Translations under genes and position numbers: made by a program
Shown here: piece by piece, positions 45,873-51,372 of the stretch
Layout: the number at the start of each line of letters is the position of its first letter
How positions within the stretch are numbered: position 1 is the first letter of the stretch
DNA from: a phage
Strand: one strand, 5' to 3'
DNA: 64,000 nucleotides
Assembly: GCA_009015555.1 (NCBI GenBank)
Contig: GCA_009015555.1_3613.1
Notes under the pieces: generated by a model
Told to the model about the DNA's origin: nothing
What the model saw: only the letters and a program-made list of their open reading frames with translations
Databases searched by the model: none

Positions 45873-48317
45873 ATGGCAAGTGGAAACGTGATTGTCACCA
45901 AAACAGTCAACCGTACAACGTTTGAGGTGGACAAATCCTCGTATGCCCGGGCGGTCAAACAGATCCGTCAAGTTGGCAAAGAGTGGGAGAAGGCATCTGA
46001 TGCAATCTCTAAACCAAAGAAAGACCCGGCTAAAGCCTACGACAAATCAGCCCAGCAGATGCGCCTGGTGAATAAGCGCTTGGCAGAAACCCGCGCCCGT
46101 GAAGAGAAACGCGCCTCTGAACGCAGCATCGCGCTGGCCCGTCGAGAGGCGAAGGCCAAAGAAGCGATCGCCAAGGTATCCGCTGCTCGTATTAAGCAGC
46201 AGGTACAGCAGATGACCGCCCCTCGTGCCGGAATGAGCGAGATGAAGAAGTTCTACCAGCAGCAAGAGCGTGAGGCCAAGAAGGCTAACCGTAAAGCTAC
46301 GACTGGTATGAATGCAGCATCCCGTCCGATGAACGTTACCCGAATCAACTCTCTCCAACTGCCCCCTCGTGGTGGTCAGGGGACCGGAATGGTGGGTGAT
46401 CCGAATAAAGTTTACAACCCGGAATTGATCGCTGCCCAGAACCGTGCAATGGCAGGTCGAATCCGCAGTCAGTCTCAGGCCCAGGACCGCAGAACCAAGG
46501 CAGAGACACGCCGCAAGGCGGCTGAAGCGGCTCGTGCAGCCCGCATCGAAGATGTTATGGCACAACAGCGTATTCGTTTGTCATCCAAGTATGGCCGCAA
46601 CTATGCGGGCCGTCTTGGTGGAAATGCCGCTGGTCAAGGTATCCAAGATCTGAACCGTCAGTTCCGTACCGGGGCGCTGTCCGCCGGACAGTATCGCCAG
46701 AGTATTCAAGCACTGGAACGCCAGTTCCGTTCGGCACAGGCAAGTGCAGGCGGGTTTGGGGCCGTCATTGGAGACATCCGCTCCCAACTGTTGGGCGCAG
46801 GTGCAGCATACGGTGTATTTGCCGCAGGCGCAAGTGTTCTTCAACAAGGCCAGTTCTTCCAGGGTATGGATGCAACGATGACGATGGTTTCTGATTCATC
46901 CGAAGAAGCTGCAAAAAGAATCCAGTTCTTGAAGGATCAGGCTTATCGACTCGGATTGGATCTTAAAATCGCTTCTCAGGGCTACGTGCAGATGTCCGTC
47001 AACTCCGACGGTATCCTGAATAAGGCTCAGAACGATGAATTGTTCAAAGGCTTCTCTGAGTACGCAACGGCCCTTCAGGTTGACCCGGTTAAGTTCCAGC
47101 GTGGTATCACCGCGATCGGGCAGATGATGGGTAAAGGCCAGATCATGGCTGAAGAATTGAAAGGCCAGTTGGCTGAAGGTATCCCGGGTTCATTGCAGGT
47201 ATTCGTGAAGGCGTCTCAGGAAGCGTTCAACGACACCACCATCGACGTTGAAAAACTCATGGATATGATGCAGAAGGGTGAACTGAAAGCTGCCAAAGTT
47301 CTGCCATTCGTAGCCAAATACTTCGCCGAAGCTGCCCGTAACGGCGGCGCGTTGGATAAGGCATTGCAGAGCAACCGTGTGGCGATGCAACAGATGCAGC
47401 AGACGTGGGTTAACTTCCAGAACGCCATCTTCCAGGGTGGTTTCGGCGAGCAAATGACCCGTGTGTTCCGTGATCTCGCAACAATCCTTGATAGTAACGG
47501 TGAACTGGCAACCAACCTCGGGGCCTTCTTCGGCAATGTGATCGAGGGGTTCTGGGACATGGTTACAGAGATCCACGATGACTTCGTTCTGTTGGACCGT
47601 ATCGTCAGCTACTATGCTGAGAAACTCGGTTACCAAGGTGAACTCCTCAAGGATGTTTTCAACTGGGCAGGGTATGCAGTCGGCATGGCGATCTTCGTCG
47701 GCAGTCTCTACAAAATCTTCGGTATCCTTAGCAAAATCGCTGGACTGCGTGGTGCTCTTAAAGAGATCCGTGGTACAATGGGTGGCGATATGGGCGGAGG
47801 CCGTGGAGGAAGAGGTGGTAGAGGCGGACGTGGGGGCGGAGGCCGTGGAAATGGTTGGGGTGCTCCTCGCGGGGGTGGTGGATTCAAGCTGCCTGTTGTT
47901 CCTGGGCCGTGGCCTATGGTGGCAGGTATCCTTGGATGGAACTGGCTGAACGATGAGGAAGTTAACGCCAAAGCTCAGGCTGTAAATGAGTTCATGGCAC
48001 CTGCCCGTGCAACCCAGTCCCCTATCGAGCAAGCACTCACGGGGGACATGGGTCTCTTCATGAAGACAGCGTTCTACTCTTTGTTTGGTTCCAAGAAGGA
48101 AGCTCCAAGCACAACCATCGATCCTGAACGTTTGGTTACCGCTGGCGCTTCTGGGCCATATCCGGGGCCGTTCCCAATCAATCAGCCTCCTCAAAAGGTT
48201 GAGGGCAACGTGACCATCGAGATCAAGGCTGGCGAATTGAAGAACATGATTCGTGCCGTTGTTGATGAGAACAACCAGTTCAACTTCAACATGCTCATCC
48301 AGGGTGGGCCTAACTAA
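45873..48317 (+). CDS. Tail tape measure protein
   Basis: 814-aa largely alpha-helical/Ala-Gln-Arg-rich protein following chaperone pair; RBS GGAGGAGG; contains Gly-Arg-rich RGG segment. Confidence 0.72.
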   Translation: MASGNVIVTKTVNRTTFEVDKSSYARAVKQIRQVGKEWEKASDAISKPKKDPAKAYDKSAQQMRLVNKRLAETRAREEKRASERSIALARREAKAKEAIAKVSAARIKQQVQQMTAPRAGMSEMKKFYQQQEREAKKANRKATTGMNAASRPMNVTRINSLQLPPRGGQGTGMVGDPNKVYNPELIAAQNRAMAGRIRSQSQAQDRRTKAETRRKAAEAARAARIEDVMAQQRIRLSSKYGRNYAGRLGGNAAGQGIQDLNRQFRTGALSAGQYRQSIQALERQFRSAQASAGGFGAVIGDIRSQLLGAGAAYGVFAAGASVLQQGQFFQGMDATMTMVSDSSEEAAKRIQFLKDQAYRLGLDLKIASQGYVQMSVNSDGILNKAQNDELFKGFSEYATALQVDPVKFQRGITAIGQMMGKGQIMAEELKGQLAEGIPGSLQVFVKASQEAFNDTTIDVEKLMDMMQKGELKAAKVLPFVAKYFAEAARNGGALDKALQSNRVAMQQMQQTWVNFQNAIFQGGFGEQMTRVFRDLATILDSNGELATNLGAFFGNVIEGFWDMVTEIHDDFVLLDRIVSYYAEKLGYQGELLKDVFNWAGYAVGMAIFVGSLYKIFGILSKIAGLRGALKEIRGTMGGDMGGGRGGRGGRGGRGGGGRGNGWGAPRGGGGFKLPVVPGPWPMVAGILGWNWLNDEEVNAKAQAVNEFMAPARATQSPIEQALTGDMGLFMKTAFYSLFGSKKEAPSTTIDPERLVTAGASGPYPGPFPINQPPQKVEGNVTIEIKAGELKNMIRAVVDENNQFNFNMLIQGGPN

Positions 48318-48386: not shown

Positions 48387-49250
48387 ATGGCAAGTTACGA
48401 AAACGGTGTTTACGTTCCGTCAACGGAACAAGAGAAGAAAATGAAGGAGGCCGTTGACGACTGGCGGGCTGGAGTCGATCGGAAGGAAAAGGCGGTTTCT
48501 AACGCCAAGGCACGTGAAGACATTCAGTACACCATGTTCGTTTCCGGACTGCGCCGTGGACGGTTGAACGAGTTCGAGAGCAAAAACCAGACAGATGACC
48601 TGGCAATCCTCTTCGACTCAGTTACCAACCATAGTTACACAAAGGACTACAACAAGTCAAGCTATGCGGTGGAGTCAAAGGCAAAAGCCTCTGACCACGT
48701 AACAACGCAGGATGGCAAGTTTACGTTCTCTGGCACAGTTACCGACTCCCCTTACTTGATTGACCCTCGGAACATGATTGATCGGGACACAGATAAGGAA
48801 AACCCGATGCTTGCCCGCCGCCCGGCGAAGGCCATCGAGATTCTCGAACTGATTGCCGACTCACACCAGCTTGTAACTCTCGTCACCGAGGACAATATCC
48901 TCAGTAATTATGTTATCACCAACTTCCAAGTGGATCGTAGTTCAGAGACAGGATCTTCAATCAACGTGCAGGTTACGTTGGAAGAGTTCCGCTTCAAGAT
49001 GGTTAACAAGACCGTAATGGCTCGTACTTCTGACCCCAAGAAGGCTAAAAACGCCAACACCGGGACGAAGCAAACGGCTGAAGGTGGCGCGGTGGATGAC
49101 AGTGCGAAGCAGAAGCGTCAAACACCGTATATCGGGAAGAATGCTGAAACAAAAGAGCGCTGGGAAAACGCAGCTATCGGTACTACTGATTTCGGCGGGA
49201 AGCCGGGGGCGAAGCTACCGTTTGACCCATCTGACCTGATGAGGAAGTAA
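48387..49250 (+). CDS. tail/baseplate protein (putative, 287 aa)
   Basis: First gene after tape measure. Confidence 0.4.
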   Translation: MASYENGVYVPSTEQEKKMKEAVDDWRAGVDRKEKAVSNAKAREDIQYTMFVSGLRRGRLNEFESKNQTDDLAILFDSVTNHSYTKDYNKSSYAVESKAKASDHVTTQDGKFTFSGTVTDSPYLIDPRNMIDRDTDKENPMLARRPAKAIEILELIADSHQLVTLVTEDNILSNYVITNFQVDRSSETGSSINVQVTLEEFRFKMVNKTVMARTSDPKKAKNANTGTKQTAEGGAVDDSAKQKRQTPYIGKNAETKERWENAAIGTTDFGGKPGAKLPFDPSDLMRK

Positions 49251-49252
49251 TT

Positions 49253-49627
49253 TTGGCTAACACTACAGAACGTACTGTGGTTCGGACCTTTGACTTTGAG
49301 TTGAGTGGCTATCCGGACGAAACATTCCGTGTGGTATTGGACTCCGTGACTTACGAACTCCGATTCATGTGGAATGAACGAGATGACTCATGGTTCATGT
49401 CTTTGGGGGATGTCGGTGCCCAGCGCCCAACCATTACCTCTAAACTGACCTGCTACTCTGACATCTTGGCCCCTTACCGCTATCTTGACAACGTACCTAA
49501 TGGCAACCTTTACCTCTGGCCCCTTGGGGACATCAGAACCCGGGCTGGACGTTTTAACATCGGCCCCCTTAAAGGTATCCAGATGACCTATTCGTCCCTT
49601 ATTGAGGACGTGGAGGATATTGAATAA
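49253..49627 (+). CDS. baseplate-region hypothetical protein (124 aa)
   Basis: Alternative (TTG) start per ORF track; position. Confidence 0.35.
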   Translation: MANTTERTVVRTFDFELSGYPDETFRVVLDSVTYELRFMWNERDDSWFMSLGDVGAQRPTITSKLTCYSDILAPYRYLDNVPNGNLYLWPLGDIRTRAGRFNIGPLKGIQMTYSSLIEDVEDIE

Positions 49628-50628: not shown

Positions 50629-51372
50629 GTGGCATACGCTGACCGCTATGATGCAGCATTTGGAATTTACATTTCCCGATTCCTGCGTAATAACGTCCAC
50701 ACGAACATTCGTGGGAAGGTGGTTGGGGTGAACTACAGTGGGCCGTCTGTTGATGTTCAACCGATGGCCTACACAGAGTTCCCTTCTGGAACCACAGACC
50801 GATACCCGGTTATTTATGATGTCCCTGTCCTGTTGCCGTCAGGCGCAGGGGGTAAGGCCCGCCTGACCATGCCGATTAAGCCCGGCGACGTGGTAGGTCT
50901 CTCCTTCTCTGAGCGGAACGAGGGGGACAATAACGATCAGAACACTCACCAACTGTTTGCCGGGTGGGCCGTCACCCAGATCTTCACCGATGGCAACTCA
51001 AAGGCGATTCATCCAGACAACGTTGTCTTGGAGAACGATAAAGCCATTATCACCCTGAAGCCTAACGGGGACACTTCCCTTCAGAACCCCAAGGTTACTG
51101 TGGAAGCCCTTGCGGACGGCAACGTCAAGATCAGTAATGGCACCGGGGAGTTCACCATGAGTCCTTCCGGGGAGATCAAGGGCGGAAACAAAGGAGGGTC
51201 ATTCACCCTTCAGTCCTCTGGGCAGTTGATGTGTAACGGAGCACGGATCACCACCTCTGGAAGAATCATTACTGCCAATGGTGTTGACATGGACGACTTC
51301 TATCAGAAGTATATGTCCCACACCCACGGCGGCGTAGAGCGCGGCGGTGATAACACCAATCCGCCGAACTAA
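50629..51372 (+). CDS. Baseplate central spike-like protein (gpV/gp5-like) with C-terminal HxH motif
   Basis: Gly-rich beta-rich sequence ending ...YMSHTHGGVERGG, resembling apex metal-binding HxH of spike proteins. Confidence 0.45.
   Translation: MAYADRYDAAFGIYISRFLRNNVHTNIRGKVVGVNYSGPSVDVQPMAYTEFPSGTTDRYPVIYDVPVLLPSGAGGKARLTMPIKPGDVVGLSFSERNEGDNNDQNTHQLFAGWAVTQIFTDGNSKAIHPDNVVLENDKAIITLKPNGDTSLQNPKVTVEALADGNVKISNGTGEFTMSPSGEIKGGNKGGSFTLQSSGQLMCNGARITTSGRIITANGVDMDDFYQKYMSHTHGGVERGGDNTNPPN

Follow-up and report, generated by a model that had tools for sequence, protein, structure and literature searches.

Cryo-EM of phage φTE showed six tape measure protein (TMP) copies along the tail and, within the hub and puncture apparatus, three C-terminal fragments, with no density connecting them, and from this copy mismatch the authors proposed proteolytic cleavage of the TMP (PMC11972413). 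In phage lambda, the TMP gpH is cleaved into gpH* and gpHC within a Gly-rich region close to the C terminus, and there are six copies of the gpH body but three of a C-terminal piece of ~14 kDa (PMC12617516). The TMP of the Pakpunavirus P7-1 is present as six copies in the tail lumen and ends in a three-helix C-terminal cork (PMC12697256). Here we analysed a Gly/Arg-rich low-complexity tract in the TMP encoded by a 64,000-nucleotide (nt) phage contig (GCA_009015555.1_3613.1 of GenBank assembly GCA_009015555.1; this whole stretch is called the window below). The tract lies at 47781..47894 on the plus strand (aa 637-674 of the TMP, GGDMGGGRGGRGGRGGRGGGGRGNGWGAPRGGGGFKLP; core GGGRGGRGGRGGRGGGGRGNGWGAPRGGGG), within a TMP gene at 45873..48317 (+). 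Our analysis indicates that it is one lineage's form of a family-wide Gly-rich, usually basic low-complexity segment, and we lean, with modest confidence, towards the reading that it works as a flexible, disordered hinge between the six-copy helical body of the TMP and its tail-tip module.

Among the described systems, φTE belongs to the same genus. Its TMP is orthologous to that of the window (811 versus 814 aa, with the same gene order), the TMP chain of its structure (PDB 9cuy chain W) aligns to aa 2-814 of the window TMP, and it too has a Gly-rich tract after a hydrophobic helix. However, the φTE tract (GGAITRGGVTNGAGLGGGAGAAGTPGAS) and the ~140 aa that follow it are of another cassette type, and the tract is nearly uncharged and without RGG (Arg-Gly-Gly) repeats. 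The length of the φTE TMP agrees, according to its authors, with a tail of ~1020 Å (PMC11972413), and TMP length is tightly held across the family (804 ± 10 aa).

In the window TMP, the 38 residues of the tract include 22 Gly and 6 Arg, compared with 11% Gly in the whole protein. The densest 25 residues hold 17 Gly, a number reached by none of 20,000 shuffles of the TMP sequence (0/20,000; shuffle maximum 13). Six RGG were found in the TMP against a shuffle mean of 0.7, and four of these units are consecutive (RGGRGGRGGRGG), a tri-RGG pattern. The isoelectric point (pI) of the tract is 12, with seven basic residues and one acidic residue, and its G+C content is 68%, compared with 54% for the TMP gene. 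The initial annotation had reported a Gly-Arg-rich segment at 47778-47885 within a TMP. The (+) translation of that interval is MGGDMGGGRGGRGGRGGRGGGGRGNGWGAPRGGGGF. The segment is real, but the peptide quoted for it maps to 47781-47894, and the coordinates were thus off by one to three codons. The host open reading frame (ORF) was confirmed to be a TMP by its matches to Pfam TMP_3 (PF20155; aa 322-518, 60.9 bits, cutoff 41) and to PHROG 5255 (E = 0, profile positions 1-800 of 800).

We then compared the tract position among homologues. A set of 5.8 billion proteins gave 120 homologues, of which 118 were full-length and were used in the counts, and 150 more distant representatives were compared besides. 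The family counts refer to the 45 residues that follow a conserved anchor. At this position, Gly is at least twice the protein-wide level in 109/118 homologues, and the median Gly content is 29%, versus 10% protein-wide. Net charge is +3 or more in 83/118 and 0 or less in 9/118. Lys is the commoner basic residue, since at least four Lys occur in 65/118 but at least four Arg in only 15/118, and two or more RGG are found in only 2/118 (the window TMP and P0002). The RGG-repeat form is confined to the clade of the window TMP and to one further cluster. The tract sequence itself is unconserved among homologues, reading GGAGRGGRAGPNSGPQRGP in KaOmega-type proteins, GPGAGPAGPAAGTPGGPAGPP in CR9, and GGGGDDEGGDGGGKKRKG in GAP31/PVP-SE1-type proteins. 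The segment had originally been called an insert. As a Gly-rich tract stands at the equivalent position in the homologues, it is not an insert. Comparison of related TMPs, which had been suggested to look for its presence or absence, showed a common feature of the family, although one that is highly variable. The feature does not extend to TMP_3 proteins in general. In the distant TMP_3 proteins, C-terminal hydrophobic segments are general, while a Gly-rich tract after them is uncommon. We therefore rejected the tract as a general TMP_3 trait: it is common in Vequintavirinae-like proteins, rare in 140 of the more distant representatives, and absent from PAK_P1.

Ahead of the tract is the helix with the highest hydrophobicity in the TMP (47664..47732, +; aa 598-620, WAGYAVGMAIFVGSLYKIFGILS), whose Kyte-Doolittle 19-mer peak is 1.72 at aa 602-620. 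A hydrophobic segment was found in this region in all homologues, and in an AlphaFold2 model it is covered by a predicted helix at aa 589-620. We regard it as a candidate membrane-active segment. Between this helix and the tract is a conserved amphipathic basic segment (47733..47780, +; aa 621-636, KIAGLRGALKEIRGTM), the last conserved block ahead of the tract. L619, I622, and G624 are at least 90% conserved in A1, and the consensus KIAGLxGAL is family-wide. On the other side is a Pro/Trp-rich, weakly hydrophobic segment (47883..47942, +; aa 671-690, FKLPVVPGPWPMVAGILGWN) with a Kyte-Doolittle value of 0.97 and four prolines. It is the first conserved element of the window-type cassette, with the pattern FK.P..PG-PWP...G in a 16-member group, and downstream of it is an acidic region with a few short predicted helices. 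The conserved C-terminal end (48198..48314, +; aa 776-814, VEGNVTIEIKAGELKNMIRAVVDENNQFNFNMLIQGGPN) is conserved family-wide and nearly identical in φTE, and is a probable hub/spike-binding plug.

The AlphaFold2 run was made on the monomer with a 97-sequence family alignment and gave a mean predicted local distance difference test (pLDDT) score of 65. It placed helices across most of aa 21-635, as expected of a long, mostly alpha-helical protein, and coil with pLDDT below 50 at aa 636-694. The tract is thus predicted to be intrinsically disordered, and as the model is a monomer model of moderate quality, this prediction is supportive rather than decisive. The conserved TMP_3 core domain (46836..47426, +; aa 322-518) has a pLDDT of 89-98 and the lowest entropy in the 118-sequence family alignment. 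The TMP had been described as otherwise helical. This agrees with most of aa 21-635, but not with the coil at aa 141-182 or with most of the region beyond aa 636. At aa 141-180 (46293-46412), the TMP is non-helical and variable, with AlphaFold2 coil at pLDDT ~40 and a family entropy of 2.5 bits; therefore, even ahead of the tract the protein is not helical throughout. At aa 290-325 (46740-46847), where the TMP_3 domain starts, there is a further hydrophobic, Gly/Ala-rich segment (ASAGGFGAVIGDIRSQLLGAGAAYGVFAAGASVLQ) with a Kyte-Doolittle value of 1.38 at aa 306-324, which may likewise be membrane-active or may serve in packing. A Foldseek search of the AlphaFold2 model against the PDB returned nothing but generic helical bundles, none of them below E 0.1.

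The arrangement around the tract resembles that of lambda gpH. In gpH (853 aa), a hydrophobic stretch at 696-714 overlaps a Gly-rich one at 692-721, ~135 aa before the end of the protein. In the window TMP, the corresponding stretches are at 598-620 and 637-670 of 814 aa, so that in both proteins a hydrophobic stretch is followed or overlapped by a Gly-rich one about 130-180 aa from the C terminus. According to our calculation, a cut within the window tract would yield fragments of ~70 kDa and 15-18.5 kDa, the latter compared with the ~14 kDa of the lambda piece. The two also differ. The gpH tract is rich in Gly, Ala, and Ser and is uncharged, while the window tract is Gly/Arg-rich; and lambda is a siphophage whose TMP belongs to another Pfam family and in which cleavage is demonstrated, whereas in the window we infer it. 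A paper on the P1 virion contains nothing on TMP processing.

These comparisons suggest how the tract might work. In Vequintavirinae-type TMPs, a hinge directly after the conserved hydrophobic helix would join the helical body (aa 1-636), present as six copies in the tail lumen, to a tail-tip end of ~180 aa (aa 637-814), whose last ~40 residues would plug into the baseplate hub and spike. Selection would keep the composition of the hinge (Gly-rich, mostly basic) and its approximate length, but not its sequence. The RGG repeats would have arisen in the CR3/CR8/PBES02 lineage by expansion of GGN and CGN/AGR codons, and would still be gaining and losing codons. Being flexible, the hinge would be the likeliest site of a φTE-type break from six to three copies. 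Proteolysis could make this break, as happens in the Gly-rich stretch of lambda gpH; alternatively, three of the C-terminal ends could simply be left disordered. The hinge would also double as a junction that tolerates slippage and the exchange of a cassette of ~140 aa. The initial suggestion of a flexible linker fits here, given the predicted disorder and the position between the conserved hydrophobic helix and the C-terminal tail-tip module. That the segment might mark a processing site is in keeping with the 6:3 copies of φTE (PMC11972413) and with the cleavage of gpH in its Gly-rich region (PMC12617516), but for this TMP we infer such a role, as we do any role of the positive charge. We hold actual cleavage within aa 630-690 only tentatively, as a possibility with the odds somewhat against it.

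Several points weigh against the hinge. First, cleavage of a Vequintavirinae TMP, in this phage as in any other, is so far a proposal, and the φTE authors located no cleavage site (PMC11972413). Second, a BLASTP comparison of the window TMP with lambda gpH gave a best E of 2.6, that is, no detectable sequence similarity. Therefore, the parallel is one of analogy only: the window TMP may work like gpH, without being a member of its kind. Third, PAK_P1/P7-1 belongs to the same Pfam family and has the same 6:3 mismatch without a C-terminal Gly-rich tract, so such a tract is not required for the mismatch. The TMP of P7-1/PAK_P1 (gp82) is like that of the window in its Pfam TMP_3 core (its PDB chain is matched with an E of 1.2e-22) and in a hydrophobic segment in its C-terminal third, but it differs in lacking the Gly-rich tract in the C-terminal region, and its ordered six-helix crown has no recognisable counterpart in the window TMP. 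Fourth, AlphaFold2 modelled the monomer of an oligomer that is housed in the tail tube, and low pLDDT is weak evidence of disorder; most of aa 557-814 also scores low. Finally, the excess of synonymous changes in the tract and a conserved Trp, both described below, hint at more constraint than a pure spacer needs.

The frame is intact through the tract in every relative, and each insertion or deletion (indel) spans a multiple of 3 nt. The indels that separate close relatives here are in frame and 3-9 nt long, and between phages of 95% identity the tract varies by one or two Gly codons. In PcCB7V, the tract has a 9-nt and a 3-nt insertion and a 6-nt deletion. Tandem Repeats Finder (TRF) detected only a degenerate 15-nt period with 62% matches, and the Gly and Arg codons are mixed; we therefore rejected the tract as a recent DNA tandem repeat. 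The ratio of synonymous to non-synonymous changes in the tract is 6:0 against CR3 and 20:4 against PcCB7V. Under neutrality, only some one in three of the single-base changes in a GGN codon would be silent. The excess therefore shows that purifying selection acts on residue identity in the tract within the lineage, while its length is free to drift. In addition, a single Trp in the otherwise freely varying tract (47850-47860, aa ~660-663, NGWG) is conserved in the 16 proteins with the window-type cassette as GWG, PWGK, or PWNK. Judging from this conservation pattern, no other position of the tract has the look of a determinant for specific recognition or cleavage.

The first alternative to the hinge is a functionally neutral, slippage-prone spacer at a domain boundary, in which the RGG units would be an accident of the expansion of GGN and CGN codons. 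The family-wide hypervariability of the sequence, the small indels between near-identical phages, the degenerate repeat period, and the high G+C content agree with this, and even phages with a common cassette type diverge most at the tract (KaOmega). A neutral spacer would not be expected to show the synonymous excess, however, nor Gly enrichment in 109/118 homologues with basic charge in most of them, nor a Trp conserved within the cassette group, and by our reckoning the tract was never lost among homologues. We give this explanation perhaps one chance in a few.

Somewhat less probable is that the tract, together with KIAGLRGALKEIR, gives the helix at aa 598-620 a basic flank next to the membrane, where it would bind anionic lipid head groups or orient the helix in the inner membrane after expulsion of the TMP and so aid a conduit for DNA. 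In favour of this, the tract comes right after the protein's strongest hydrophobic segment, the charge is +3 or more in most homologues, and hydrophobic segments near the C terminus are general in TMP_3 proteins. The relatives PVP-SE1, GAP31, and EspYZU12 have this protein annotated as 'membrane protein', and the TMPs of lambda, T5, and HK97 are believed to make up, or take part in, channels across the envelope (PMC12617516, PMC12697256). Nevertheless, nine of the 118 homologues carry no net positive charge here, and φTE-type tracts have few charges. A two-helix transmembrane hairpin with the tract as its loop was rejected by a simple hydropathy test, as the flanks score 1.72 and 0.97, the weaker second segment having four prolines. 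Taken together, we consider a membrane role unlikely.

An electrostatic anchor has also been considered, in which the flexible Arg-rich segment would bind the acidic inside of the tube rings next to the baseplate and keep the TMP there until it is triggered. The precedent is P7-1, in which a six-helix crown (residues 689-706) enters an acidic tube interface mainly via Arg691 (PMC12697256), and the pI and the seven-to-one balance of basic and acidic residues would suit such a contact. But the P7-1 crown is helical and lies much nearer the C-terminal cork than the tract, a Gly-rich tract is absent from PAK_P1, not all members of the family are charged here, and no ordered density of such a kind was reported for φTE (PMC11972413). 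The anchor is improbable on these grounds.

Least probable by far is an RGG-type nucleic-acid-binding motif that touches phage DNA during ejection, which had been the leading initial idea. The tri-RGG pattern, with four consecutive units among six RGG in all, speaks for it. Against it, Arg-Gly repeats are unconserved in orthologues, which mostly lack a second RGG and have Lys or uncharged tracts instead, this end of the TMP sits by the baseplate, a long way from packaged DNA (in φTE, ~1000 Å separate it from the DNA end; PMC11972413), and full-text literature searches gave no paper tying RGG motifs to TMPs. Searches for literature on RGG or low-complexity glycine tracts in TMPs likewise returned nothing relevant. 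The tract is like eukaryotic RGG/RG motifs in having RGG repeated four times consecutively in a disordered region, but unlike them it is part of a phage structural protein in the tail lumen or baseplate and its Arg is unconserved among orthologues. The likeness is compositional only. We regard the tract as an ordinary Gly-rich hinge near the TMP C terminus, which is a known kind, and not as a new DNA-binding device.

Apart from being a putative hinge, the tract is the left junction of a hypervariable, exchangeable cassette of ~140 aa (47781..48197, +; aa 637-775). Between the window and φTE, the tube protein, the chaperone, a 60-aa protein, the plug, a 330-aa protein, the spike-like protein, and a 177-aa protein are all 95-99% identical at the amino acid level. 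The TMPs are ~90% identical at aa 1-630, 13-43% at aa 631-780, and ~90-100% in the last ~35 residues. A metagenomic relative, P0003, is 97% identical to the window TMP ahead of the cassette and 20% inside it. DNA identity to its contig is ~90% or more up to ~47793, breaks inside the tract (~47793-47810, after ...GGGMGGGRG), stays at the level of unrelated sequence until ~48270, and then is 90-100% through the downstream genes. The length of the variable segment is roughly kept (130 ± 10 aa). Clustering of this segment revealed two main cassette types, with 16 members (the window type) and 97 members. These types are interleaved relative to similarity in the N-terminal 635 residues: the window-type cassette occurs in proteins only 56% identical to the window TMP there, while the other type occurs in proteins that are 93-97% identical. 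Recombinational exchange between phages is the best explanation for this interleaving. No co-variation of the cassette with neighbouring baseplate proteins was seen, the neighbours being 95-99% identical across cassette types.

A bolder proposal is that the tract is both a recombination hinge and a mechanical one, a junction common to Vequintavirinae phages and tolerant of sequence change at which they swap the cassette, that three of the six TMP copies are cut at it, and that the swapped cassette meets the host, through inner-membrane or periplasmic entry factors or through superinfection-exclusion or defence proteins. Our argument for a host-facing cassette is that its replacement leaves the hub, plug, and spike proteins at 95-99% identity, but the proposal as a whole is speculative and we think it unlikely to hold in full. 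If it were true, host range in this therapeutically used phage group would have a second determinant, the type of TMP cassette, acting after adsorption. Several such phages are under development for biocontrol of Cronobacter, Pectobacterium, and Klebsiella, and a cassette governing post-adsorption steps would be relevant to host-range engineering.

By itself, the tract is of little weight, as a low-complexity linker in a well-annotated structural protein. However, it marks, within ~35 residues, the most plausible place for the break in the φTE TMP that was inferred by cryo-EM, and whether and where a myophage tape measure is cleaved thereby becomes a question for targeted mass spectrometry. 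It also marks the left edge of the exchangeable TMP cassette in Certrevirus and related phages.

The TMP has a mass of 88.4 kDa and a pI of 9.9. At the nucleotide level, its gene shares 95% identity with the TMP genes annotated in the Cronobacter phages CR3, CR8, and PBES02 and in Pectobacterium phage P7_Pc, and on this identity the window can be assigned to a Certrevirus myophage of the subfamily Vequintavirinae. The gene order is a 473-aa protein in the sheath position, the tube, the tail assembly chaperone (TAC), the TMP, a Dit-like protein, a Pam3_gp18 plug (49253-49627), and a spike-like protein (50629-51372) that carries an Apex motif. The TMP gene thus comes after the tube and chaperone genes and before the baseplate hub genes, as expected of a tape measure. 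The 473-aa protein is homologous to a PBES02 structural protein and had no Pfam match in our analysis. The chaperone gene (45009..45539, +) matches Pfam Phage_TAC_15 with an E of 2.6e-20, and the gene of the Dit-like baseplate protein (48387..49250, +) matches Pfam Dit_like with an E of 3.1e-27. The Dit-like protein is the least conserved neighbour relative to φTE (87% identical to its homologue there). At the DNA level, it is 88-100% identical to a metagenomic contig (L013) that carries a different cassette, and in this one other pair checked it does not track the TMP cassette type.

Two antisense ORFs overlap the tract, at 47190-48194 (-; 334 aa) and 47708-47971 (-; 87 aa), and the shorter one is Pro-rich (PPPRPPLPPLPPRPPP). 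We rejected both, which are almost certainly not genes, because their Pro-richness mirrors the Gly codons and they have no annotation in relatives. The first 1,381 nt of the TMP gene are 85.6% identical to PQ520352.1, a record of 2,019 bp named 'Enterococcus phage IME_EF3'; it looks as if its host label is wrong or the record is a contaminant. Directly upstream of the TMP gene, φTE has an extra CapR-domain gene, φTE_227 (316 aa; L012 2661-3611), and the L013 contig encodes a 449-aa CapR+DUF723 protein at the same site (975-2324). In the window, there is only a 64-nt gap there (45809-45872). The upstream CapR gene looks like an insertion polymorphism, possibly a mobile gene.

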